Program-made: the position numbers and the translations under genes | The notes under the pieces: model-generated | The model's database searches: none | What the model was told of the DNA's origin: nothing | What the model saw: the letters and a program-made list of their open reading frames with translations, nothing else | Shown here: positions 3,207 to 60,462 of the stretch, piece by piece | How the letters are laid out: every line of letters begins with the position of its first letter | How positions within the stretch are numbered: the first letter of the stretch is position 1 | Source: Eledone cirrhosa | Lineage: Eukaryota | Assembly (NCBI GenBank): GCA_964016885.1 | Contig: OZ024741.1 | Span: 141,546,001-141,610,000, forward strand | Direction: 5' to 3' | DNA: 64,000 bases

Positions 3207-4038
3207 TAAACAAATAATGAATAAAACAATGAAACAGTTCCTTATATTAAACAAAAAAAGTTCATTATTTAACGATCGTTTCTAGGATATATATGTGTTA
3301 GAATTGGCATGCATATTCAACAGATCTATGTACAAAATTATACAAAATTATACAAACTATCAAAATTAAATATACATACCAAACACACATATACGCCGTC
3401 TTCAGAAATAATGAAATATATTTATTGATAATAACAACAATTCAAAATTTCAGGTCCGTTTGGGAACAAAATTGACCAATGAAAATACAAAAGGTTTTGT
3501 GCAGTTTGGTGTGTGTATATACATATAACTACCCCGTACACATATTTATACAAAGATGTATGCTAAACATGCATACGCATGCCAAAAAGATGCATGCAAA
3601 TACAAAATTTCAAGGTTAATGTCTCTGTAAGTTTATAATGCACAGATAAGATGCGTATAGACACATAAATATGAAATAAGTGTATACACATATTCTCATA
3701 CTCACACATATCCGTACACTCACACACACGCGCGCGTATATGCATAAACATACACATAATTACGAACATACATACACACACACACCCCCACACACATATA
3801 TATATGTGTGGATATAATATTATCATAAGCACATGGATATTAATTCACTCACATAAACACTGCCACACACATTTAGATCAAGATACAGAAATTAGGTGGG
3901 AGGGGGGGAGAGGTCAGTATTCAACGGTTTGGGCAGACTGCTTATTTATAGATGTATCTATAAACTAAGAAATAAAAAATAAAAATTAAAAAGGAAAGAA
4001 AAGAAAAAGAAAAAAGAAAAAAGAAATATATCAAGAAA

Positions 4039-4110
<72 letters not shown>

Positions 4111-4112
<2 letters not shown>

Positions 4113-4300
4113 CGAAGGAAATGTGGTAAGGAACCAGGTGGACCATAACGCACCAAAGTACTCAATACTTGAGGTAGTAGAGTGGGTAATAGGAACCAGT
4201 AAGACCCCGACAGCTGAGCTCAAGCCGTTTCGACGGCTAATTCAGTCCAGAATTAGCCGTCGAAACGGCTTGAGCTCAGCTGTCGGGGTCTTACTGGTTC

Positions 4301-4304
<4 letters not shown>
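4111..4304 (-). mobile_element. Short PLE-type insertion with a perfect 55-bp fold-back
   Basis: Arms 4189-4243 and 4250-4304 are exact reverse complements around a 6-nt loop; 4111-4208 is a near-identical reverse complement of 8946-9043; flanked by (TA)n. Confidence 0.75.
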
Positions 4305-4335
<31 letters not shown>

Positions 4336-7462: not shown

Positions 7463-7634
7463 TGTAAACAAACGGCCTGATTTAAAGCTGTGACGTGTTG
7501 GTGACCGATCGTCACCTGTTTGATCGATTTAAAGGTGTGCTGTGCCGGTGACCGATCGTCACCTGTTTGTTCAACAAACAGGTGACGATCGGTCACCGGC
7601 ACAGCACACCTTTAAATCGAGCCGTTTGTTTACA
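7463..7634. repeat. GC-rich palindrome / fold-back element
   Basis: Perfect 48-bp arms 7524-7571 and 7573-7620; outer arms TGTAAACAAACGGC (7463-7476)/GCCGTTTGTTTACA (7621-7634); a diverged extra unit at 7477-7523. Confidence 0.9.
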
Positions 7635-8926: not shown

Positions 8927-8929
<3 letters not shown>

Positions 8930-9043
8930 GGAACAAGTAAGACCCGGGGTCTTACTTGTTCCTATTACCCACTCTACTACCCTAAGTATTGAGTACTTTG
9001 GTGCGTTATGGTCCACCTGGTTCCTTACCACATTTCCTTCGTT
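8927..9043 (+). mobile_element. Second copy of the short PLE-type element, with a 19-bp fold-back at its 5' end
   Basis: ATAGGAACAAGTAAGACCC-G-GGGTCTTACTTGTTCCTAT palindrome centred on 8946; flanked by (TA)n. Confidence 0.75.
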
Positions 9044-17970: not shown

Positions 17971-20900
17971 CCTTGAATCTCAGTCATTGATGTTGGTTAA
18001 CTGGAAAGTCCGTTGGATTGAATATCAAGCCACTACCTGCAGCCTCAGATATTCAGGACGTATCGGAGGGTTCTTGCCGTTCCAAGCAAGCATGCCTTTT
18101 GAAGCGTTCCAAAAAGCGTGAAGGGGCCGATTTTCTTTAACCATCCCTGGAAACCTTTGGAGATAGTCCCCAGTGCGCCTATGACAATCGGGATCACTTT
18201 GACTTCATGGCAGTTCCAAATCCTTTTCACCTCCCACTTTAGGTCCTGGTATCGGTTAATTTTCTCCCTCTCCTTCTCTTGCACTCTCGTGTCGAACGGG
18301 CAGGCCACATCCACAATCAGGCACGATCTTTTTTCTTTGTCCACAACCACCAGGTCAGGTCTATTGTGTTCCAGTTTTTTGTCCGTCTGTATCCTAAAAT
18401 CCCACAGCACCTTCACCTGACTGTTCTCCATCACCGCCTCTGGCCTATGCTCATACCATTTCTCAGAATGTGGTAGATTGTTTACTTTGCACAGGTGCCA
18501 GTGGATCACCCTGCCCATCACATCGTGTCTCCAGCCCTTATAGTGGGTCTGGGCTAGGTGTTTACACTCGGACACAATGTGAGCCACAGTCTCCTCTCTC
18601 TCTCCACAGATCCTGCACAGTGGGCTAGCCTCCTCCTTGTAGATATGGTGCTTCAACCACTTCGTTTTGAGGGCCTGCTCCTGCGCAGCCATTAGCATTC
18701 CTTCTGTAGCCTTTTTGAGGTCTCCTCTTCTCAACCAGTTCCATGTCTGTGGATCTCTAAATTCAGTTTTCTCAAAGAAGGTACTATGAAGGGATTTTCC
18801 CTTAAGGCTGCTCTTCCTCCTTGATGTTATTTCCTCCTTGGGTATCCCCTGGCCTACTGTCCCCTCCTTCAGTACAGCTCTGAGCATTGGCTCCTTACTA
18901 TAGGTCACGTATTTGTATAGGTTGTTTTTCTCCATCTGAACACAGTCCTCTATGCTGATAAGACCTCTTCCACCCTCAGATCTCCTTAGGTAGAGTCTAT
19001 CGACATCACTCCTCTTGTGGAACATGTTGTAGATAGTCAATAGCTTCCTAGTCTTCCTATCCATTTCTTTTTGTTCAGCAACATTCCATCTCAGAATTCC
19101 CGCACTGTACCTAATAATAGACACAGCTCGGGAATTTACTGCGCTTATGGCATTTCTGCTGTTCAGATGTGACTTCAATACGCTCCTTACTCTCCGAATG
19201 TATTCAGTTCTTAACAATTCCTTCATTTTTTTGTTCTTTATGCCATCAGCCTCCAGAACGCCCAAATACTTGTATCCTTCCTCAGAGTCAATTTCCTTTA
19301 TCATCTCACCTGTTGGTATCTGGATCCCGTTACTTCTGCTCAACCTACCCCTCCTCATCACAATGACTCCACATTTACCAATACCAAACTGCATACATAT
19401 ATCACTGCTGAAAATACGGACAGTGTCAACAAGCACATCCAACTCCTTCTCACTTTTCCCGAAGAGCTTAAGATCGTCCATGAAGAGGAGGTGATTGATG
19501 GTAAGCTCTCCCCTTCCCAACTTGTATCCTGCTCTCACTTTTCGCAGCATAATGGTCAAGGGCATCAGGGCAAGGACAAACAACAGAGGGGACAGGCTAT
19601 CTCCCTGGAAGATACCTCTCTTGATCTTCACGCTTCCCAAGGATACTCCAGTTGATGTCAACTCTGTCTCCCAGGACCCCATACTCCTGCCCAGCAACTG
19701 TCTGATGTTATCTGCCACCCTGAAGATCTCCAGGCTTTTGGTGATCCAGGAATGAGGCACCATGTCAAATGCCTTTCTGTAGTCTATCCATCCCATGGCA
19801 AGATCAGTGTGTCTCCTCCTGCAATTCCCCATTACCATCTTATCAATAAGCAACTGGTCCTTTGTACCACGTGACTTCTTTCGGCATCCTTTCTGTTCGT
19901 CCGGCAACAAGTTGTTTGTGTGGAGGTGATGGTAGATTTCCTCAGACACAATGCTCGTCAACAGTTTCCACATTACGGGCAGACATGTGATAGGTCTATA
20001 GTTGGTAACATCATTACCCTTGATTCGGTCTTTCATTATCAGAACTGTGGTACCTTTTGTCAACCACTCTGGCACCTCACCCGACACCAAGCAGTCATTG
20101 AACATGGCCGTCAGCTTCGGGTGGAGGGATGTTAAATGTTTAATCCAATACCCCTGCACACCATCTGGGCCTGGTGATTTCCAGTTGGTTAGTTTTTTGG
20201 CTTGCCCCTTAAGAGTTTCAACTGTGATACTCAAATCAGTCTGTTGCTGTGCCTGCTCACCGATCTCCCTCTGTACTGTCTCAATCCACCCTGCCTGGGC
20301 ATTGTGTCTAACATCCTGCTCCCATATTCCTCTCCAGAATGTTTTAGCTTGTTCCGCCCCAGGGATCAAGTCGGTGCCTCTTTCTTTCCCCTCAAGCTGT
20401 CCAAACAGCATCTTCTGGTTGTTGTCGAACATGCGGTTCTGTTTATACTGACTGACTCTGTTCTCGTATCGCCTGATTTTGGCACTCTTTGCTACAATGC
20501 GTTGCTTCAATTCCTCTATGATAATATTTAGCTTTTTACTCCTAGTTTTGTATTTTATTTCCAGTCTATTTTTAGTGCCTATGTTTTTTAGTGTCCCATT
20601 CAGTAGTGACTCATGCTTTCCTATGTCATTTCTCATTTCCCCGATTTGCCCACTCAGTCGCTTCTTCCACCACGGCTCTGCTCTTTCTTGTCTGTTGTTT
20701 CCTCTCGCTTTTATACCAAGTAGTTTCCTCACCGTATTTGCTGTTGCTTTGAGGATATTGTTGCACTGGTGAAGACTCCTCGCCTCAAGGTATGGGATGA
20801 CTTTGTTTACCTTAGCTGTTGTTTCTTTTAACTTTTTCCTGTCTACAAATCTTAGGTTCATAGGTCTCCCACTATCATTGTTCAACTCATCTACCACTAA

Positions 20901-21452
20901 ATTTAGGATGTCAACCGAATCTTGTCCTAGCCCGTCAGCATTCATCTCCTCAGTGGCCGTATCTCTGTTCCAGGTATTATTTATCTCAGTATTCAGATCA
21001 TTGTCTGCTTCGGGTGGTTCCTCCGCTCTCAGGACCTCCTCACCTTCATTTCCCGCCGGCTCGCTTGTCTGGCATACCACACCCGCCATCTCCAAGCCAT
21101 TCTCTCTGCTCAGTTCCTCCAGTTCCAGCTCGCTTATCCACCCATTAGTTCTTATTACCCGAGCCTGCCCGGCCAATTTTTGTTCATCTAATTTAAATAA
21201 ACCAATCTCGTTCCAGATGTTATGCATCCGTCTCCTGTAGCCCCTCTCCTTGGGGTTACTTTTCAGGTAGCATTGCATAACAGTTCTATTCAATTCTTTC
21301 GTCCAGTTGGTTCTGGCCCCTTTCCTTCTTCTTCTTCCTCCAACATCAGCAGTATTTCGTTGACAGTCAGGTTCCTGCTGCTGAGCCAGGGGGCACCTGT
21401 TGGGTGAGAGTCTGTCACATGACGTTCTAGTCTCCATTTCACCGTTATTCGA
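17971..21452 (-). mobile_element. R4/Dong family A, near full length with intact ORF (copy A1)
   Basis: Flanked by (TAA)n on both sides; lacks only about 55 nt of the 5' end seen in copies A2 and A3; 3' UTR about 75 nt. Confidence 0.95.
18045..21437 (-). CDS. Reverse transcriptase + CCHC zinc knuckle + restriction-like (PD-D/ExK) endonuclease of an R4/Dong retrotransposon, 1130 aa from METRTS
   Basis: YRPITCL, QKGC, WIDYRKAFD, GIFQGDSLSPLLF, FMDD, YKYLG, CRICGEREETVAHIVSEC, RHD, RPDLVVVD...IVDVACP and KINRYQDL; no stops. The first 80 aa of the 1210-aa ORF call come from upstream flanking DNA. Confidence 0.93.
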   Translation of the reverse strand: METRTSCDRLSPNRCPLAQQQEPDCQRNTADVGGRRRRKGARTNWTKELNRTVMQCYLKSNPKERGYRRRMHNIWNEIGLFKLDEQKLAGQARVIRTNGWISELELEELSRENGLEMAGVVCQTSEPAGNEGEEVLRAEEPPEADNDLNTEINNTWNRDTATEEMNADGLGQDSVDILNLVVDELNNDSGRPMNLRFVDRKKLKETTAKVNKVIPYLEARSLHQCNNILKATANTVRKLLGIKARGNNRQERAEPWWKKRLSGQIGEMRNDIGKHESLLNGTLKNIGTKNRLEIKYKTRSKKLNIIIEELKQRIVAKSAKIRRYENRVSQYKQNRMFDNNQKMLFGQLEGKERGTDLIPGAEQAKTFWRGIWEQDVRHNAQAGWIETVQREIGEQAQQQTDLSITVETLKGQAKKLTNWKSPGPDGVQGYWIKHLTSLHPKLTAMFNDCLVSGEVPEWLTKGTTVLIMKDRIKGNDVTNYRPITCLPVMWKLLTSIVSEEIYHHLHTNNLLPDEQKGCRKKSRGTKDQLLIDKMVMGNCRRRHTDLAMGWIDYRKAFDMVPHSWITKSLEIFRVADNIRQLLGRSMGSWETELTSTGVSLGSVKIKRGIFQGDSLSPLLFVLALMPLTIMLRKVRAGYKLGRGELTINHLLFMDDLKLFGKSEKELDVLVDTVRIFSSDICMQFGIGKCGVIVMRRGRLSRSNGIQIPTGEMIKEIDSEEGYKYLGVLEADGIKNKKMKELLRTEYIRRVRSVLKSHLNSRNAISAVNSRAVSIIRYSAGILRWNVAEQKEMDRKTRKLLTIYNMFHKRSDVDRLYLRRSEGGRGLISIEDCVQMEKNNLYKYVTYSKEPMLRAVLKEGTVGQGIPKEEITSRRKSSLKGKSLHSTFFEKTEFRDPQTWNWLRRGDLKKATEGMLMAAQEQALKTKWLKHHIYKEEASPLCRICGEREETVAHIVSECKHLAQTHYKGWRHDVMGRVIHWHLCKVNNLPHSEKWYEHRPEAVMENSQVKVLWDFRIQTDKKLEHNRPDLVVVDKEKRSCLIVDVACPFDTRVQEKEREKINRYQDLKWEVKRIWNCHEVKVIPIVIGALGTISKGFQGWLKKIGPFTLFGTLQKACLLGTARTLRYVLNI

Positions 21453-21509
<57 letters not shown>

Positions 21510-21510
21510 T

Positions 21511-23697
21511 GAGTCTCGGTCATTGATGTTATTTAACTGGAAAGTTTGTTGAAATGAATATCTAGCCACTACCTGCAGCCTCAGATATTCAGGACGTATC
21601 GGAGGGTTCTTGCTGTTCCCAGCAAGCATGCCTTTTGAAGTGTTCCAAAAAGGTCTCCTCTTTTTAACCAGATCCATGTCTTAAAGAAAGTACTATGAAG
21701 GGGTTTTTCATGAAGATTGCTCTTCCTCCTTGGACATCCCCTGGACTATTGTCTTCTCCTTCAGACAAACAACAGAGGGGACAGACTATCTCCCTGGAAG
21801 AAACCTCTCTTGATCTTCACGCCTCCCAAGGATTCTCCAGCTGATGTTAACTCTGTTTTCCAGGACTTCATACTTTTTCCCAACAACTGTCTGATGTTAT
21901 CTGCCACCTTGAAGATCTCTAGGCTTTTGGTGATCCAAGAATGAGGCACCATGTCAAATGCCGTTTTGTAGTCTATCCATCCCATGGCAAGACCAGTGTG
22001 TCTCCTCTTGCAATTCCGCATTACCATCTTATCAATAAGTAACTGGTCCTTTGTACCACGGGACTTCTTTCGGCATCCTTTCTGTTCGTCCGGTAACAAG
22101 TTGTTTGTGTGGAGGTGATGGTAGATTTCCTCAGACATAATGCTTGTCAACAGTTTCCACATTACGGACAGACATATGATAGGTCTATAGTTGGTAACAT
22201 CATTACCCTTGATTCGGTCTTTCATTACCAGAACTGTGGTACCTTTTATCAACCACTCTGGTATCTCACCTGACTTCAAGTAGTCATTGAACATGGTTGT
22301 CAGTTTCGGGTGGAGGGATGTTATATTTTTAATCCAATACCCCTGCACACCATCTGGGCCTGGTGATTTCCAGTTGGTTAGTTTTTTGGCCTGCCCCTTA
22401 AGAATTTCAACTGTGATACTCAAATCAGTTTGTTGGTGTGCCTGTTCACTAATCTCCTTTTGTACTGTCTCAATCCACACTGCCTGGTCATTATGTTTAA
22501 CATCCTGCTCCCATATTCCTCTCCAGAATGTCTTAGTTTGTTCCGCCTCAGGGATCAAGTCGTTGCCTCTTTCTTTCCCTTCAAGCTGTCCAAACAGCAT
22601 CTTCTGGTTGTTGTCAAACATGCGGTTCTGTCTATACTGACTGACTCTGCTCTCGTATCGCCTAATTTTTGCACTCTTTGCTACAATGCGTTGCTTCAGT
22701 TCCTCTATGATAATATTTAGCTTTTTCCTCCTAGTTTTGTACTTTATTTCCAGTCTATTTTTAGTGTCTATGTTTTTTAGTGTCCCATTCAGTCGGGACT
22801 CAAGCTTTCCAATGTCATTTCTCATTTCCCTGATTTGACCATTCAGTCGTTTCTTCCACCAAGGCTCTGATCTTTCTTGTTTGTTGTTTCCTCTCGCTTT
22901 TATACCAAGTAATTTCCTCACCACATTTGCTGTTGCTTTGAGGATATTGTTGCACTGGTGAAGGCTCCTCGCCTCAAGGTATGGGATGACTTTGTTTACC
23001 TTAGCTGTTGTTTCTTTTAACTTTTTCCTGTCTACAAATCTTAGGTTCATAGGTTTCTCACTATCATTGTTCAATTCATCTACCACTAAGTTTAGGATAT
23101 CAACCAAATCTTGTCCTAGCCCACCAGCATTCATGTCCTCAATGGCCGTATCTTTGTTCCAGGTATTATTTATTTCAGCATTCAGATCATTGTCTGCTTC
23201 GGATGGTTCCTCCGTTCTCTCAACCTCTTCGCCTTCATTTCCCACTGGCTCGTTTTCCTGGCATACTCCACTCTCCATTTCCAAGCTAATCTCTCTGCTC
23301 AGTTCCTCCAGTTCTAGCTCGCTTATCCACCCATTAGTTCTTATTACCCGAGCCTGCCCGGCCAATTTTTGTTCATCTAACTTAAATAGACCAATCTCGT
23401 TCCAGATGTTATGCATCCGTTTCCTCTAGCCTTTCTCCTTGGGGTTACTCTTCAGGTAACATTGCATAACAGTTCTATTCAATTCTTTCGTCCAGTTGGT
23501 TGTGGTCCCTTTCCTTCTTCTTTTTCCTCCGACACCAGCAGTATTTGGTTGACAGCCAGTTCCTTGCTGCTGAGCCAGGGAGCACCTGCTGGGTGAGAGT
23601 CTGTCACATGACATTCTAGTCTCCACTTCACCGTTATTCGAACTGTTTAGGTTCGACATTTAAACACTCTTATCGAGGATTGGTGAATATATGGTTA
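21511..23697 (-). mobile_element. R4/Dong family A with intact ends and two large internal deletions (copy A2)
   Basis: 5' end carries the ATG at 23659 (MSNLNSSNNGEVETR); junctions near 21651 and 21764 skip about 600 and 700 bp relative to A1; 3' end abuts (TAA)n. Confidence 0.92.
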
Positions 23698-28185: not shown

Positions 28186-30291
28186 ATGGCTACGAAAAAG
28201 AATTTGCATAGGTCACTCCCACTCATTCCGTCTTCTTCTTCCCCAATCGTCACTACAGCAGAGAGAAGATTGTCTCTCTCCCTCCCTTCTTTAAATGTGT
28301 CTCTCTCCCTCCCTTCTCTTTCGCAAGCGACGACAGAAAAGAAAAGTCTTGTGCAAAGCGTGCAAGATTTCTCCACGACGACAACAACGAAACAGGTGTG
28401 CGGGAAATACGAAAACCCATTTCATTCGTCTGACGTCAGGAATAATAGCAGTAGCAGCCGTAATAACAACAGCAACAGTGACAATGAAAACAACAGTAGC
28501 AGCCGCAACAGCATCACCAGCAGCATAAACAACAACAGCATTAGCAGCAGCAACACCAACAACAACCACAGCAACAGCGGCGGAGGCAGTAGTCGTAGTA
28601 CCTGCAGCAACAACAAAAGTAACAGCAGCTCTGACGACAACAACAACAACAGCAGCAAAGAAAAACCAATATCGTTTGCAGGTATCGCGAAGAACCTGGA
28701 AACAATCCTCATAACAAATGAGGAATTAGAGGAAGCGAAGAAGATGGTGACAAATATAGGACACCGATCAATCTGCAAGGCAGCGGAAAAATTTTTCGAA
28801 ACCCAACAGCACTGTACGGTCACGTACCGTACAGTAAGTACAAAATCCCGTAGGGTTGAAAGAGCCACAGAGGCTCAAATACAAAAAGCCTTGGGGTCTG
28901 TGTGGCAGCGGAAAACGCACATCACCCGAGGCAAAAAATATGCCACCGTAGACGTACTTTTTGCCACACCCCAGGAGGCAAAGGCTCAATCCGTAGTGAC
29001 CCTAAGGAGCGAGGAAATGGTGTTGGTGCCCTCCTACTGCGGGCAAAAAATTGTGAGGGTCAAACTGACCCACGTCCCCCCCCCCCCCCCGGGATGGCCC
29101 CTTCTTGGCTTGCCGCGTCTGTCCTCGTCGGAATCGAGGACAAAACAACTGTATTGCAAGTACAGAAAAAAGTAAGAGAAGATTGGGTCGGCACCTCCAT
29201 TGAGATGTTATTCCAAACCAGCCAGGAGTGCATCGAAGCTATCCCGGATGTGATAGACTTCGATAACGGCACTCAACTGCCCATAAGTGTTGAGGGCAAA
29301 CGCCCGAAATGCTTTCGCTGTGGATCGAAGACTCACCTCAGGGCCTTCTGCAACGAGAAGACCCTGAGAAAGGAGAAAACCCCCCCTCCTTCCGAAACCG
29401 GCTCCACGGCTACCAGCAACAGAACAAGCGGCAACCATGAACGATAGGTCCGTGGCACCCATACCCACTCCACGGAAATCAAAAACAGCAGCAGCAGTGG
29501 AAATATTAACAACAACAACAGCAATACCAAATGCAGCTGCAACAGAGACTCCAGTGCTAACATCACCAACGACAACAAGTGAAAGAGTGGAGCTGGTACC
29601 CCTCCCCGACCTCACAGAATCAGACATGGAATGTGAGGTGGGAGAGGGATGGCATAAGGTCGTAAGAAGGCACAAACGCAGAAGCAGCGCATCGTCGCCT
29701 TTGAAAAGGGAGGAAAGAAATGAGAAAAGGGTAAAGTCTACTGCAAAGAGACTCACAGCAGCAACACCACCAACACCATCACCACCCACACTAGCACCAC
29801 CATCACCACCGGCAACAACCCCACCGCCAACAACACCTTCAACACCACCACCACAAGCACCAACATCGCAAACACAACAACAAAACACACACACCCAGCA
29901 ACAACGACAAGAAAATAGCAGAACCACACCCCACCCCCAGAAAAACAAATGCACGGCAATAAATACACACAACAAGAAACTAATGACTTACATAATTGAA
30001 CACACAGACATTTCACAACACGACTACATAATACCAGCACCGATCAAAACGCCAACTAACATAAGACTGCTAAAAATAGCACAGAAACAATACACAAACA
30101 TTAAAACGAAATTCCCCAACGCAGTTGGTGATTTCAGGGACCTAGGAGGAACTATCAATCGAAGAGTATATTCGGACATACTCATAGAAGAGCCGACGAC
30201 CAGCCGAAGGGACGATTCAACGGTCCCTTCACCAGACGATCAAGTGAAAAGGGATGTAAAAACCATCCCTCCTCTACGAAAAGTACGGTAA
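28186..30291 (+). CDS. ORF1, gag-like zinc-knuckle nucleic-acid-binding protein (two apparent frameshifts)
   Basis: Starts MATKK; N/S-rich and T/P-rich tracts; CFRCGSKTHLRAFC (CX2CX4HX4C). Frame changes can be placed at poly-C runs ~29076-29090 and ~29380-29386. Confidence 0.75.
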
Positions 30292-30326
30292 GTTGTCTTT
30301 CCCATCTTTTCCACTCTATTTTAAAC

Positions 30327-33300
30327 ATGACCTCACTCAGAATAGGCAGCATAAATGCGCGTGGCTTGGGGTCGTCATGGAAGCAGGGTCACCTGCTCAA
30401 CGACCTCAGGTCACTAAACATAGATGTAGTGGCCATCAGCGAGACCAGAATCTCCGAAGCACGGGCCTTCGCACCGATCTTCGGCGGCTACGATGTGTAC
30501 GCATCTCCCAGCCGTCCTGGATCGGGGGGAGGAGTTGCTGTGCTTTTTCGGAGAGGTTTGGATCCCGCCATACGGGCCATTTTCCTGGACCCAGAGGGTA
30601 AGCTGGTGGTGCTGGACGTGACCAGCGGAGACGGGCAAGCTTTCAGGCTAGTGGCCGTCTATGCCCCGACAGGTGCAGGGCAGCCTGATTTCTTCCGGCA
30701 TCTGGAGACCTTTCTTGGAACGTCCCGCTCTTTAGTGTTAGTGGGCGACTGGAACGGGATCTTAGATGCACGCTGGGACTGTGTGGGATTAGCGGATAGG
30801 GGTGGAGGGTGCAAGAGCCTCACCAACCTGCTCAGGCGTTTTGAACTGTCTGACAGGTACCGATTGGATTTCCCGAATGTGCCAATGTGGACTTGGACAA
30901 ATCGCATAGGGTCATCCAGATCATATCTAGATAGAGTATTTTGTAGGGAAATAGATAGGTCTAGCATAGGCTATCCACAATTCAAGATAGTCAGCTACAC
31001 GGACCACAAATTCGTGATCTGTGTGCTTGACTTAGATAGGCTTCATAGACGAGGACCCGGCTACTGGAAGCTAAACGCGTCCTTACCAGCGCGCAAGGCC
31101 TACAGAGACTGGATTAGCGAACTAGTTAAGCGGGCGTTGACGGGGGCCATCGTCAACAACAAGTGGTGGTTTGCTCTGAAAAGAGCGATTAGAATAGAAT
31201 CCATTAGGTTTAGTAAGGCTTTAGCAATAGAGAAAAATAGAGCAGAGGGAGAACTAGTTAGAAAATTAGACGAGGCGCTTAGCAAAGGCATTGCGACCGA
31301 CGTGCTTGCGGGGAAATTGGCACTTGACCAATTCTTCAATGCAAAGCACGAAGGCTGCGTTGTCAGAGCAAGGGTGCGTGCTCTCAGACACGAGGGGACG
31401 AAAGCCGTTCAACGGGCCCGAGTGGCGGAGGCGCGTTGTGGCAACAAAGCCACGATCCGGTCTTTGGTGGACCACGACGGGCGCATGCTACGCGTTCCCG
31501 GGCAAATGTGTGAAGCTTTTCAGCGACACTTCGCTCAGCTGTTCGGGGGCAGCGGTGGGCCGGGTCGAGGGATGGACTTTAGTGTCTACCTCGACGGACT
31601 GCCGCGGCTCTCGGCCACTGAGGCGAAGTGTTGCAAAAAGCCGATAACAGCCGCTGAAGTAATGGAGGCAATGACTGGCTGCACAAGGGGTAAATCGCCT
31701 GGTTTGGATGGTCTGCCCTATGAACTTTACGTAAAGATGCTAGACTTGTTCGGAGGCCTCTTGGCGGACGTCTACTGCAACTGGCAACAGAACGGGAGAA
31801 TTCCCAGTTCTGTGAGCCGAGGAGCGGTGGCACTGCTGAGAAAGGATCCGAACAAGGGGGATAACATAGATAATTTCCGGCCCATAACTCTGCTAAACAC
31901 AGAGTTCAAGATTTTGGCCAAGGTGCTAGCAAAGAGGTTGGCGCTTGTCGTTGGTGGTCTGGTGGGAGAGGTGCAGACATGCGCCATTCCCGACAGATCC
32001 ATCCACGACAACCTCCACCTCATGCGATACATCGTAGAGAGGGTAGCTAGGGAACCTGGCAAGGGTGGGTCCTTGATCAATTTAGATCAGTCGAAAGCTT
32101 TCGATAGGGTCGACCATCGTTACCTAGTGGCAGTCCTGAGAGCGGCTGGCTTTGGGCCCGTCTTCAGAGGCTGGATCGCTGTCATGCACAGCGACATCTG
32201 CTCTGTGGTGAGAGTGAACGGTCTCCTGTCGGAACCGTTCATCATCATGCGCTCGGTCCGCCAAGTATGTCCCCTCTCGTCCCTCTTGTACATATTGACT
32301 CTCGAGCCATTACTGCACAAACTGGAGACGTTGAGGGGCGTCCCGCGCGAACTAGGATGCGGAAGATCCGTGTCAGCATATGCGGACGATGTCACCGTAG
32401 TGGTGTCGAACGCCAAACACATCGAGGCGATCGGCACTACACTAAGAGAATACGAAGCGGTGACAGGAGCAATGATCAACCAGGAAAAGTCAGTGGGCCT
32501 GCAGCTCGGCACCTGGAGAGACAGGTCCATGCCGTCCAACAGCGTCGTCGGACGCTGGACGGACGGACCAGTTAAATTGCTAGGGGTCTGGTTCGGTCCA
32601 GACCTCCAGACGGACAAAAACTGGGACGATGTGACGAGCAGGGTGGCTTCTCTCACCCAGAAATGGGCGGAGAGGAAGCTATCCCTGAAAGGTCGAGCGG
32701 AGGTGGCTAACGCGTACATCGAGTCTGTCATCTGCTACCGCCTGACCGTCGTACCTTGTCCTAAGCCCCGCCTGACTGCGCTGGAGCGTTTGCTCTTTCG
32801 CTTTTTGTGGAAGGGACGCGCTCCGATGGTCAGGCGGTCCATCTGTTGTCAACACCCGCTACGCGGAGGGCTGGGCATGCCGTGGCTGATGATGCGCAGG
32901 CACGCGCTCAGGCTACGACATCTCCACCTCTTCCTCGACGGTGATCAGGTGTGGTCGCCGTTTGCTAGACACGTATTTCCCCAGCTCGTTTCCTTGACGG
33001 AGCTGCAGTCCTGGGTCAAGCGAAGACCGAGAGGGAGCGCCTGATGACTGGAATGTCTTCAGGCGCTCACAGCCCTCGACCAATCGGGCAATGTGATCGG
33101 TGGAAACTCCACCTCAGCGTTCTATAGAGGATTAGTGGAGGGGAAGAGCGACGACGTACTTGGGGAAACTCTAGGCGTTGACGAAAATCAACTAGCCAAT
33201 CTCTTCGGAAGAACTTTCGGGCCAGGGCCTATGGACAACTTCCAGAAATCTCTGGCCTGGCAGTGCTACCGAGGAGCCTTGCCAGTTCGGGATAAACTCT

Positions 33301-50481: not shown

Positions 50482-51690
50482 TGCTCGGATGGTTAGCACG
50501 TTATGGTGTTAACATAATGTATATTAAACTATATTTAATGCTGGTCTATATTTTTGAATAAACATATTTTCCTTATTTATTCGTATTTGTTCTGTTGTAT
50601 TGTCAGCGCAAAGATAAAATGGGAAGACTTGGAATTTGGGTGTCTTATCATTTGCAGATATGTCTAGATGTGCACTTAGTGGTATCTGTCTTGTGGTAGG
50701 GTCTCGTAATTGTTGGCGATGAATTGTCATTCTGTTTCTGAGTGTGAGTTTAGTTTGTCCTATATAATCTTCATTACATCCTTTATATTTAATGGCATAA
50801 ACTAAATTTTTTGATGAGCAAGTGAAGTGATTTTTTACAACAAAATTTTGTCCTGATTGAAATGTATACATGTTGTCTTCAATGAGGTGAGTGCAGGTTC
50901 CACAATTAGAGCGACCACCTTTTTTTACAGTTGGTTTGTGGTAGGTAATTTGGCATTGGTGGGTAATGTTTTTAGTGATTTGGGTTGTCTTTTGATTATT
51001 TTGTGTGTTTCAAGGGCTTTTTTCATTCTTGGGTCTTGTTTCAATAGGTGAATGTTCTTGTGAATAATGTTGTAAGCTTCTGCATTTCTTGGGTTGTGTG
51101 TTGAGATATATGATAGAATATTGGACGTACCTTGAATTTGTTTCTGTTTTCGTAATTCATCAATGCCTATTGCTTTAGTCCTTTCTATTCTATTATTTAT
51201 TAGTAATGGTGGGTACTGTCTTTCGAGTAGAATTTCCTTTAATTCTTGAAGTCTTTTATTTCGCGTTTCATAATTGGAAACAATTGTGCAGATTCTTCTT
51301 GCTAGGTTAAATGTTCTTGCTAGGTTCGTCTTTGTGTGCTTTGGATGGTTAGAGGTAAATAGCAGGTATTGTTTGGAATCTGTTGATTTGTAGTGTATGT
51401 CAGTTTGAATATTTGTGTCTTTTTTTATCATTAAGATGTCCAGAAATGGGAGGTGATCCTGGCTGTATTACATTGTGAATTGGGTGTGGTTATTGATGCC
51501 GTTAATTAAATTGTTGAAATCATTTAGTTGGTCGAGTGTGTGTGACCAAAGAATAAAACAATCATGCAAATAGAGTTTCCAATTCTCTGATAAATATTTG
51601 TGGAAGTTCAATCCGTATTTTGATTTGTAGTGTTCATATATCTGGACTTCCAAATATGTTATGACTAAATTAGCATATGCATACATACAT
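49370..51690 (-). mobile_element. Penelope-like element (Neptune-like): RT C-half + GIY-YIG endonuclease + 3' region, decayed
   Basis: AYANLVI, WKLYLHDCFILW, LPFLD, YKSTDSKQYL..SNHPKH, Cys-containing linker and CSSKNLVYAIKYKGCNEDYIGQT...RMTIH; degenerate hammerhead half GAAACCGGTA at ~49483-49492 followed by AATAAA. Confidence 0.88.
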
Positions 51691-56529: not shown

Positions 56530-59500
56530 GTAATTTATTACTATCTTATTACCAGTAAGATAAATAGCTCAATGTAACAACATCAGTTGGTTTACAGAGC
56601 AGTTATATAGAGATTACATGAAACACAGTTCTGTTTAAATTATTTACTTGCTTACAATTGTTTCTTCCGAACCGAGGTTTGGAGTCTACGGAGCAATTAT
56701 TCAGTGATTTTTAACATACTTGACCTCCTTTTCAACACAAGAGACATATAGAAACATATGTATATATTGACCCACAGTGGGTTGACATCCATTATAATAA
56801 TATAGCATGGTAATTTACATACAAAGATTACAGTCATATTAAAGGACAAAATTAAAGTTAAAATTAAAATTAAAATTAAAATAAAGCATTGGCAGTCTAC
56901 TAAGATAAAGCAAAAGAAAAGTTTGGAGTAGCCAGTGTATGCAACAGTCACACGTGTGGAATGCGCGCGTGTCCTATTTATACAAGATTATAGTGCGGCA
57001 GATTGTTACAAGTAAAACAAGCAGTCAAAGCAGGCAATCAAGAGCATCATGGGGGCTGAACTGGTAAAGCATTATTCACACACACCTGTACGATATAGAA
57101 GCCCGTGTGTGGAGAAACACCAAAAATATCAAAAATATTATAAATGAGAAGCAAAACAGCACCATTGTCCTCGTACACACCACCACTCTTACAATCCAGG
57201 AAACGCAATTTATAGACTACATGTCCATCTCACAATCCACGATGATTCAACATTGGGTGCCTGGTGAACCATGCTAGAACATCACCGCTTGTCGTTCTTT
57301 AATTCGATTCCATAGAGTAGGTTGTTTTTGTTGTGAGAGATGACATCGTATTATATTCCGGAAGTGTGTGTGTGGGATTAAGGGGAGTTAATGCGTAAGG
57401 GGAGGTAACTAGCTGATTTCTATAGCTAAATTTATTATCCTAAAGTACATTAATGGTGTCTCAAATGAGTTCCCATCGTATAAGGTTATAAACAATTTTT
57501 AAATTTAAGTATCTTATCTATAAATTACAGTGAAGTCTATCAAGAAGTACTAAAGGTGTTCATATTAGGATGATTACCTTCTATCATAGAGTGCCCCCAC
57601 CGAACATTCCACATGAAGAGTCAGATCTACAAATCAATGATCTCTGTAAGTGTAGTCCACCCGCAGGACCTGGCAGGGTCTTATTAGAATCACTTCTATA
57701 TATGACTCCTGGTAAGTTCTGGGTCATTGCATGTCTGATTACATGGCAAAGTTAAATATCACTAGGGTAGTCCAGAGATCAATTCTCACCCACGAAGACA
57801 CTAATCTGACCATCAAGTCATACATGTATTTATAACTCATACATCACCTGTACATAATTCATTGCACTCAGCATATAGATTATATAGCTCTTTTATGTTA
57901 ATAAATTAATTAATTACTTAATCTTCCATTTATCCAATGATGGCACTACATACACAGGACAATGTTAGCACAACCAATTCCGTGCTTAAAGTTTACATTG
58001 GTGTAATGTAGTCTAAGCAATTGAAGGCCAATATACCAAAAGTAGAAGTACATGGGGATATCCCCAAGGTAAAAGGTACTAGGAGGATGTCACTATTTGC
58101 GTTAAAGTGGATTAATGGGTATGGAGATGAGGTGTAAGGTGTGCCCCTGATGATTGCTGCTAGAGGTGGTGACGGGTTCAAGTCTGACATTGTTATATAT
58201 TGGGTTTAAAGTTTTGGAAGGAGTGTCGGAAGCGGTGTTGGCAAGACGCGAACACTTCTGATTTTTTATTAAGGAGGTTATGGTTTGAGAAGATGATAGC
58301 ATGGGTCTCCAGTAGACAGAGGTTTCAAAATTTATTAGGTGGTTTGTACGATGTCGCGTTACCTATCACTTCCCATTTAAGTGTATATGGTTTATTTTTA
58401 GTTTTTAGATAGTGTATGTAGCTAGATAGTGAAGTGGATTTGGCTAGACTGTGTTTTTTGAAATAGTGGAGGTGCGAATTGTATATGGTTTTGAAGCAGT
58501 GTGAAGTAGAGCCTATATAGGTTTCAGAAGAGTTGCTAGTTGTGACTGTGCATGAGTATATGATATCCTTGGTTAAGCATTTTTTATCTAAAGGGCAGGT
58601 TCTATTTGATCTACAGTTACAATTATTCTGGGTGTTAGTCTGCCGGTTATTATGTTGTGTAGAAGTCTGGATGGTAGTTATAGGGTTATGGTTATGTGGG
58701 TTGACGTTCCCAGCGTTATTGTTTACACAAGTGTTATTACTATTATTTCTATTGATATTAGGGTTAGTTGCTATAATGTTATTTTGAAGGTTTATCGTCC
58801 GTTGTGATTTAGTTTGCTGGAAGTAAGGATTATTTTTTTCTTTTATTGCTACTAGCTATGTGGTATGCTATGTTAGGCGTAGTAGAGTAGGAGATGTTAA
58901 TAGTGTTTTTGTTTAAAAGGCTATGGTACTTATGGCCGGATGGGAAGTTTTTATCTAGTAGTGAGAAGAAAGCCCTAGGTAGGTTGGTAGAGACGTTTAG
59001 ATTAAAAGGAGGGTTGAAAAATGTATTATTTCTTCTTCTATTTTTGTTTTTTATGTCTGGTGAGTTGTTTCCTTTTATGGTACTATGGTAATTTCTGTGG
59101 TGTGGGTTACTTTTGTTGTTACCATCCCTATTAGTGTGTGTGTGGTTGCTATTCCTATTATTAAATTTTCCCATGGACATGTTGTGTGAAGTAATGTTGT
59201 AGCTATGCGTTTTTGTAGGTAGGAACTCTATCCCTGTATTATGGCCTGATCTAGCTAATGCCTGATTATAATACTGCGAGTTATTGTTAAATGTGTTTAT
59301 GTCATAGGATAGATTAGAGATTCTATTAGATATTCCCTTAGAGATAGAGTTTAATATAGATCTAGGGTGGTTAGACTTGGTATCTACGTAGATGAGTTTT
59401 TCATTAGGTTTGTGGAAAGGTGCATATATCATTGAGTCTAGGTAGAGTGTGGCGTCTAGGAAGTTGACGTTTTTGGTGTTTTTGTCCATGGTAATACTAA

Positions 59501-60462
59501 GGTTATAGTTTTTGAATGTCTTGTGCAATAGTTTTCTAGTTGTTTCTATATTAAATTTTTGATAATCTATAAGTAGAAGTGCATCATCGCGGTACAAACC
59601 ACCGTTGAGGTATGGAAGGTCCTTATGGATTTTGCTAAGTAAATATAGGCCTACTAAATCAGTGACCTGCGCCGAGTTACTAGATCACATGGTAATGTCG
59701 AAGTTGTTTTGCGTATCCTTGCGGGTCCATAATTGGTCTTCAAAGGTGATTACTGTTTTACGGGCCGCAAGTATGACATCAATCTGGGGTCTAGTCAGGT
59801 CACTATTGTCCATGGCCATGATATGTTCCTTATGTGTGATGGACATGTAGTCTATAAATTGCGTTTCCTGGATTGTAAGAGTGGTGGTGTGTACGAGGAC
59901 AATGGTGCTGTTTTGCTTCTCATTTATAATATTTTTGATATTTTTGGTGTTTCTCCACACACGGGCTTCTATATCGTACAGGTGTGTGTGAATAATGCTT
60001 TACCAGTTCAGCCCCCATGATGCTCTTGATTGCCTGCTTTGACTGCTTGTTTTACTTGTAACAATCTGCCGCACTATAATCTTGTATAAATAGGACACGC
60101 GTGCATTCCACACGTGTGACTGTTGCATACATTGGCTACTCCAAACTTTCCTTTCGCTTTATCTTAGTAGACTGCCAATGTTTTATTTTAATTTTAATTT
60201 TAATTTTAATTTTAACTTTAATTTTGTCCTTTAATATGACTGTAATCTTTGTATGTAAATTACCATGCTATATTATTATAATGGATGTCAACCCACTGTG
60301 GATCAATATATACATATGTTACTATATGTCTCTTGTGTTGAAAAGGAGGTCAAGTATGTTAAAAATCACTGAATAATTGCTCCGTAGACTCCAAACCTCG
60401 GTTTGGAAGAAATAATTGTAAGCAAATAAATGATTTAAACAGAACTTTGTTTCATGTAATCT
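56530..60462 (-). mobile_element. Hydra-like PLE (RT + C-terminal GIY-YIG), 5'-truncated, with a ~620-bp inverted terminal segment
   Basis: GGLYRDDAL, VNFLD, KPN, SNHP, FFNPPF, ISYS, CNCR-x3-TCPL-x3-CL, IIY...YIG, LKW and ASCQH; arms 56611-57234 and 59833-60462. Confidence 0.85.

Follow-up and report, generated by a model that had tools for sequence, protein, structure and literature searches.

The 64,000-nt window analyzed here (Eledone cirrhosa assembly GCA_964016885.1, contig OZ024741.1, positions 141,546,001–141,610,000, forward strand) contains a perfect hairpin. Its sequence identifies it as a short insertion, in a (TA)n tract, of a Penelope-like retroelement (PLE) of Hydra type arranged head to head. 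We consider it likely that the hairpin formed by twin priming, in which two target-primed cDNAs copied from one RNA ran off at its presumably capped 5′ end, within loop II of a hammerhead ribozyme, and were joined. As an object the hairpin is ordinary, a PLE stub; it is informative as a member of a population. From that population we favor, with less confidence, the broader proposition that the inverted ends of PLEs are twin-primed pairs whose seams map the 5′ ends of the template RNAs, at a cap in loop II or at the ribozyme cut. This would imply germline cleavage by a hammerhead with a U3-A8 core and copying of the cleaved RNA.

The arms of the window hairpin (4189–4243 and 4250–4304) are exactly complementary over 55 bp, as a sequence-only reading of the window had noted, and flank a 6-nt spacer, AGTCCA. 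The fold has a z-score of −20.4, and none of 200 shuffles was equally stable. Both flanks are (TA)n by sequence (4038–4111 on the left and 4302–4330 on the right), and an additional 80 nt is present on the left arm only. We number the element from the A at window position 4244, the putative transcription start (+1). The tail-bearing arm (4112–4243, minus strand) covers +7 to +138, with its 3′ end abutting (TA)n, and agrees at 132 of 132 bases with the pLTR and tail of a longer copy at another locus, L031. Its one-sided tail (+59 to +138; 4112–4191, minus strand) lies between two fixed 3′ ends, which would be priming sites of the reverse transcriptase (RT). The tail-less arm (4244–4304, plus strand; 61 of 61 bases as in L031) covers +1 to +61, starting at the presumed capped A and ending in (TA)n. 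The spacer (4244–4249, plus strand) is part of this arm and would represent the initial six bases of the transcript, that is, native loop II in the sense orientation. The seam of this particular copy carries no cap base.

Within the tail-less arm, the 3′ strand of stem II (+11 to +18; 4254–4261, plus strand), whose native partner (−36 to −28) is missing from the window copy, is followed by the 3′ half of a type I hammerhead (4262–4289, plus strand), assigned from the sequence and from the fold of the full motif in L031. This half consists of GAAA (4262–4265), stem III, GTC (4282–4284) with the predicted cut at 4284/4285, and the 3′ strand of stem I, GGGGT (4285–4289); the loop of stem III holds the palindrome TGAGCTCA. 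The earlier inventory of the arms (GAAA, a palindromic stem III, GTC and GGGGT, with the first core half of the ribozyme absent) is therefore accurate, and its assignment to a PLE end bearing half a hammerhead is borne out by the match of the arms to the pLTR of a full-length Hydra-type PLE. A second insertion of the same family is located at 8927–9042 (plus strand), with a tail-bearing arm covering +42 to +138 (8946–9042) and an inverted arm covering +61 to +43 (8927–8945). Its palindrome is shorter and has another center; the seam is at the ribozyme cut, which places it in the +42 class described below.

The window contains several other elements. At 7524–7620 there is a perfect palindrome of 48 bp, unrelated to this family and interrupted by 1 nt, whose center is partly repeated just upstream. 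Broken frames of another Hydra-like PLE (YRDD, CxCx5C, IIY..YIG) lie at 58325–59684 (minus strand), and further broken PLE-like frames at 50524–51467 (minus strand), in which the linker is CxxC and GIY-YIG contains two cysteines, probably belong to another clade. A cluster of non-LTR retrotransposon frames (10190–33746) includes a 1,211-codon RT frame with a restriction-like end (18045–21680, minus strand) and a 970-codon endonuclease-RT frame (30132–33044, plus strand). Among the sampled loci, long perfect palindromes of other families also lie by (TA)n (L045:1867–2176, L151:952–1294, L050:60–297, L059:641–765, L118:501–619, L144:2285–2852 and L145:1–1206); those of L045 and L151 belong to one family and have an almost identical center.

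Pattern searches of the 3.0-Gb genome returned 10,737 exact matches to a 29-nt motif of the arms and 21,877 to a tail-end motif. At L031, a 3,118-bp unit with a single stop-free frame of 786 codons (first Met at codon 68) is accompanied by a partial tandem and by a truncated copy in inverted orientation. Read by motif, this frame contains RWR, DKT, YRDD (415), CxCx5C, VIY..YIG (658), CxxC and CxH; Pfam and PDB sequence searches with it gave no match. The architecture is that of an endonuclease-bearing (EN+) PLE: a single ORF with RT and, at its C terminus, a GIY-YIG nuclease (L031, by motif), pLTRs derived from a partial tandem, an inverted 5′-truncated copy and a one-sided tail (L031 and 90 sampled copies). 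DKT, the CxCx5C linker, the lack of a cysteine pair inside GIY-YIG, CxxC, CxH and the (TA)n targets are features of the Hydra clade; RWR occupies the position of the RWK motif of that clade. The family thus appears to be a Hydra-clade PLE, placed by motifs that match the clade description as far as it is given in PMC8557442. It runs to tens of thousands of copies, of which about half (42 of the 90 sampled) are short palindromes with a common center. A MITE or fold-back DNA transposon was ruled out by the unequal arms, the seam differences from copy to copy and the RT-element parent. Multiplication of the hairpin as a unit of its own was also rejected, since seams vary among copies, even though one junction type does recur 1,644 times and some copies may descend from one another.

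Long copies that retain the upstream half of the ribozyme (4,687 pattern matches in the genome) begin with the ACCCC of stem I, followed in order by the core, the 5′ strand of stem II (−36 to −28), the 37-nt loop II, stem II 3′ strand (+11 to +18), GAAA, stem III, GTC (+39 to +41) and stem I 3′ strand. The 3′ strand of stem II pairs with GHT-CGGCTA of these copies, and the complete type I core (three stems, N3-U-G-A-N-N8-A, GAAA, NUH and a 3-8 pair) is found in long copies only. The minimum-energy fold of the full motif (L031) has the hammerhead layout. The motif is no more stable than its shuffles (z = −0.15), and an Rfam search with it gave no hammerhead match; a search of the window likewise listed no hammerhead among the first 150 of 188 matches, which were microsatellite-driven miRNA. 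Stem covariation was absent from 30 long copies in which the stems are almost invariant, so that the result is uninformative either way. We assign to the long copies a putative type I hammerhead with a U3-A8 core, in which stem II is identified by position and complementarity.

The sequence-only reading had predicted that longer copies would read ACCCC-CTGANGA upstream. The ACCCC, a core and the CGGCTA strand are indeed there, but the core differs: a hand count of the first 100 listed of the 4,687 matches gave TTGANAA in 80, CTGANAA in 18, others in 2 and CTGANGA in none. Positions 3 and 8 accordingly form U3-A8 in 80 of the 100 and a C3-A8 mismatch in 18. U3-A8 is a described variant of PLE hammerheads, as in Schistosoma Cercyon (PMC4209133). 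With C3-A8 (also seen in L123, L135, L136 and L141), the 3-8 pair is lost and the core would be expected to lack activity, although the subfamilies that carry it were successful.

Genome-wide, 12,267 palindromes are centered inside loop II, each counted once per strand; the inversion centers are thus strongly non-random with respect to the ribozyme, as had been anticipated. Arm ends were examined in the first 90 of 100 listed tail-end matches, a sample that was not chosen for hairpins. The fine counts of this analysis are in general hand tallies of whichever rows were listed first, mostly from contig C1. The 5′ ends of the tail-bearing arms fall at −5 to +8 in 52 copies, at −12 to −6 in none, beyond −12 in 6 (the nearest at −77) and downstream in 32. 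Inverted arms could be parsed in 65 copies: the inner end lies at −5 to +8 in 52 and the 3′ end at +61 (including a TAT common to the target) in 54. Both arms end at −5 to +8 in 42 of the 90 copies. Several of the 25 uninverted or unparsed copies also stop there, so inversion is not the cause of the stop. Many arms end at +2 to +8 or extend to −2 to −5, and +1 is not the sole end. In contigs from two sequencing runs, X1 and X4, the bin that follows +1 shows a 6.6-fold and a 9-fold increase in depth, respectively; the runs may derive from the source organism or sample, which makes the step independent of the assembly only, and these contigs yielded no usable strand-change joints at the seam. 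In the upstream flank of locus L017 (1280–1500), a copy of a diverged subfamily likewise ends at about −2 of a matching TTAGT word, which suggests an old start site.

An artefactual fold-back during assembly or library preparation was rejected, as the seams vary, the flanking loci are distinct and the ends follow landmarks of the element. A splice-acceptor or trans-splice end was rejected as well, since no constant added leader is present at the seams.

The position of the common center bears on the origin first proposed for the hairpin, in which the cDNA stops after copying the whole of stem II, snaps back on it and primes itself. That the hairpin is centered on stem II holds only in part. 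Stem II exists, its 3′ strand lies within the arms (4254–4261) and the centers cluster nearby; the seam is, however, 4–10 nt further 5′, inside the 37-nt loop II, and what looks like the 5′ strand of stem II in the hairpin is the mirror image of the 3′ strand, from which the native 5′ strand differs. A snap-back on stem II would retain the native loop II between the arms, and the predicted product has no match in the 3.0 Gb (one pattern, covering common variants of loop II). The hairpin itself lacks both the native 5′ strand and loop II. None of the sampled tail arms ends at −36 to −28, nor does any of the 90 end between −12 and −60. Moreover, the window copy has its spacer on the tail-less arm, a position that the tail-primed cDNA could not have given it by folding back on its own. 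We give this origin almost no credence; the observation behind it is confirmed and its interpretation partly supported, and the mechanism is replaced.

The stop in loop II coincides with promoter-like sequence. Long copies carry TATTTAAA 29 nt upstream of YA(+1)GT; in one subfamily, whose loop is longer and whose word is weaker, the distance is 31 nt. The TATA-like word is variable (TATTCATA, TATTCAAA and TATTTATT in some subfamilies). We take a gap of 29–31 nt to be the usual spacing between a TATA box and an initiator. Both arms reach +1 in 1,034 palindromes genome-wide, and in a hand count of the first 50 listed, 32 contain a non-native C or G, which is present on both arms in 12 (C-A/T-G in 9, CG in 2 and CCAG in 1). 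The other seams have a single C/G (17), a one-sided one (3), no insert (7) or a native or nearly native sequence (11). The native base at −1 is T, with C in 5 of 29 long copies; a C after the antisense end or a G before the sense start is thus foreign, although in the minority subfamily, where −1 is C, a single C/G insert can be native sequence. Full-length L1 insertions, as described in the available text of PMC11702581, carry an extra G copied from the cap, and the foreign C/G beside +1 can be read as a cap mark in the same way. Outside the palindromes, at 80 loci where an uninverted +1 end adjoins (TA)n directly, the base at the join is T in 49, G in 17, and A and C in 7 each, which amounts to an enrichment of G among the non-T bases (17 of 31, p = 0.011). 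We infer that Pol II initiates at +1, positioned by TATTTAAA at −29 and the initiator-like YAGT, with the extra base a copied cap.

A minor class of 420 palindromes is centered near the ribozyme cut. Both arms end exactly at +42 in 26 of the first 50 listed (hand count), with 1–6 foreign bases between them in 20 and none in 6; among the others, 7 lie within +42 to +44, 7 have one arm reaching +39, and 10 are of other types. Single inserts at +42 seams are A or T in 7 of 7. The arm-adjacent non-native bases in inserts of at least 2 nt are of the cap type in 27 of 29 at +1 compared with 6 of 26 at +42 (Fisher p = 7e-8). The +42 seams are mostly without the cap-type base, as expected of an uncapped cleavage product, and we infer that the +42 ends correspond to RNA 5′ ends created by ribozyme cleavage in vivo.

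The same comparison weighs on the view that ends at −5 to +8 mark a pause or a cut (at a weak AU-rich stem, by an RNase or by the GIY-YIG nuclease of the element), followed by end-joining. The predicted fold does have a small stem with its 3′ strand across −4 to +5, a related nuclease is reported to favor ATT (PMC11167929, in the text available), and the ends are scattered over 13 positions. Such a site would leave unexplained why C/G occurs beside +1 and is mostly absent beside +42, as well as the 29–31 nt spacing of the TATA-like word and initiator and the empty interval from −12 to −6, which is equally AT-rich. We regard it as quite improbable. Self-priming on an antisense template, proposed for junction palindromes of rotifer PLEs from an identical head-to-head geometry (PMC3846280, as far as described there), is more improbable still: the seams coincide with an initiator and a cap base, both in the sense orientation, and with the ribozyme cut of the sense strand, all features of the 5′ ends of sense RNA. 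The run-off of cDNAs at RNA 5′ ends is the reading that we retain.

Several observations point to a contribution of two cDNAs. Among the sampled pairs, the further-reaching arm is the tail-less one in 25 and the tail-bearing one in 20, with 14 ties; fold-back of a single tail-primed cDNA predicts that the tail arm is always the longest, and the 25 cases argue against one cDNA. Seven of the 65 parsed pairs do not overlap at all. The junction type of the window copy has 1,644 matches; of the first 100 listed, 54 carry the spacer on the tail-less arm and 46 on the tail arm. For the C-A/T-G seams (203 matches), the first 100 listed include 58 rows that end in the tail, and the untemplated A belongs to the tail-less arm in 31 of these and to the tail arm in 27. 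Flipping of the spacer after insertion could even out both ratios (54:46 and 31:27) and weakens the argument from symmetry; it cannot make cap bases on both arms or non-overlapping pairs, which stand regardless. The +58 end also terminates long direct copies (L031), so +58 is probably a real priming site. A PLE protein has been reported to cut and extend both target strands and to start at two sites flanking the tail (PMC11167929, from the parts available).

The two cDNAs appear to share a template. Mixed pairs, with one arm ending in loop II and the other near +42, have 375 matches (about 26 of the first 100 listed start at +41/+42), compared with roughly 3,300 expected under independent templates, a rough figure that compares patterns of unequal stringency. 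The arms agree at three subfamily sites in 33/33, 33/33 and 31/33 parsed pairs (chance expectation 16.5, 19.4 and 12.9). This agreement fits one RNA, and it suits a fold-back or a single active source as well. Alternatively, the templates may have been two RNAs that were cleaved while paired as a dimer through the palindromic loop III.

Fold-back could also act at the RNA 5′ end itself. The run-off cDNA would add C (and A), fold on 2–4 of its own bases and extend, and the resulting sense strand would anneal to the partner cDNA or to the target; the start site would be unchanged, and the joining would differ. In R2 insertions, cDNA has been documented to snap back once it has been synthesized to full length (PMC11371274, in the text available). 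The seams TCTG-GACT-CAGA and, in the window, TTC-TGGACT-GAA allow loops of 4–6 nt on stems of 2–3 bp, and the near-constant concordance of the arms suits such a step. It cannot, however, yield C..G on both arms with 0–2 nt between them (12 of 50), and zero-spacer palindromes and the non-overlapping pairs (7 of 65) fall outside it. The loop belongs to the tail-less arm in 54 of 100 cases, so this route needs a second cDNA anyway. We therefore consider it unlikely as the general origin, with short fold-back at the RNA 5′ end a possible joining route.

In the twin-priming model that we prefer, a nuclease would cut (TA)n, and the 3′ ends of both target strands would prime RT, at +138 and +58 on the 5′ repeat of an RNA transcribed from +1. 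The two cDNAs would run off the 5′ end, add C opposite the cap and often then A, and their 3′ ends would be joined directly or after slight trimming, by template jump or microhomology end-joining. PLEs are not known to carry an RNase H, and its absence would allow a single RNA to be copied twice. With +1 in loop II, the 5′ repeat would be devoid of the first core half, leaving half a ribozyme at the 5′ end and a whole one in the 3′ repeat, and priming on the 5′ repeat would produce abortive, strong-stop-like stubs. Templates starting at +42 may come from read-through transcripts, from 3′ copies or from cleavage in trans. At two loci (L034 and L113), tail arms starting at +1/+2 continue into upstream direct pieces of the 3′ UTR or ORF; these joins are consistent with RT template jumps able to build partial tandems.

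PLEs are the closest retroelement relatives of telomerase, and the origin of the seams bears on their tandem and inverted ends. Thousands of seams give predictions at the level of single bases (a cap at +1, a 5′-OH at +42 and two cDNAs per RNA), and seams may be read in this way in any PLE-rich genome from DNA alone. The findings concern a specialist field and come from a single family in a single genome, with the start, the cap and the cleavage all read from DNA. The literature searched, in which subscription papers and older PLE reviews are thinly covered, gave no cap mark at PLE seams, no start site inside a ribozyme and no seams fixed at a cut site. Inverted truncated copies and tails are standard for PLEs, and PMC8557442, in the text available, names the formation of their tandem and inverted ends as an open question. 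Evidence of PLE hammerhead cleavage in vivo is stated to be absent in the available text of PMC4209133.

The published account of the Hydra clade (Craig et al. 2021, PMC8557442), in the parts available, describes a single ORF with RT followed by GIY-YIG, DKT, CxCx5C, no CCHH, CxxC and CxH, together with (TA)n targets, a hammerhead in the pLTR, an inverted 5′-truncated copy and a one-sided tail, all of which are shared by the present family. The latter differs in having RWR instead of RWK, a 3.1-kb unit, a tail of ~80 nt compared with 30–40, a U3-A8 core, a loop II of 37 nt and a copy number in the tens of thousands, around half of the copies being palindromes. Poseidon_Ac in vitro (Frangieh et al. 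2024, PMC11167929) shares the cutting and extension of both strands, the two RT starts that bound the tail and AT-rich targets. According to the available text of that study, the 5′ seam was not mapped, the ORF starts at stem II and no RNA reads ended at the ribozyme site; in the present family, by comparison, the seam would mark a cap in loop II, and there is a minor class whose ends fall precisely on the cut site.

L1 twin priming, as outlined in the accessible part of 10.1101/2024.08.27.596794, is alike in that two nicks prime two cDNAs on one RNA and give rise to an inversion. In L1, the second priming depends on chance complementarity and the pieces barely overlap, whereas the present family has two fixed priming sites, and the same 58 nt are usually copied to the end in each of the two cDNAs. 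PLE hammerheads (Cervera and de la Pena 2014, PMC4209133, in the text available) share the type I layout, G10.1-C11.1, a long helix II, a palindromic loop III and U3-A8 with the ribozyme described here, which differs in its stable 6-bp helix III and in a long loop II that apparently contains the promoter. The promoter of Drosophila virilis Penelope is likewise located in the pLTR. It is described as TATA-less, and its start lies upstream of both intron and ribozyme; the 5′ end thus includes the whole ribozyme (PMC2377424 and PMC4209133, both as available in part). In the present family, by contrast, the putative start splits the ribozyme.
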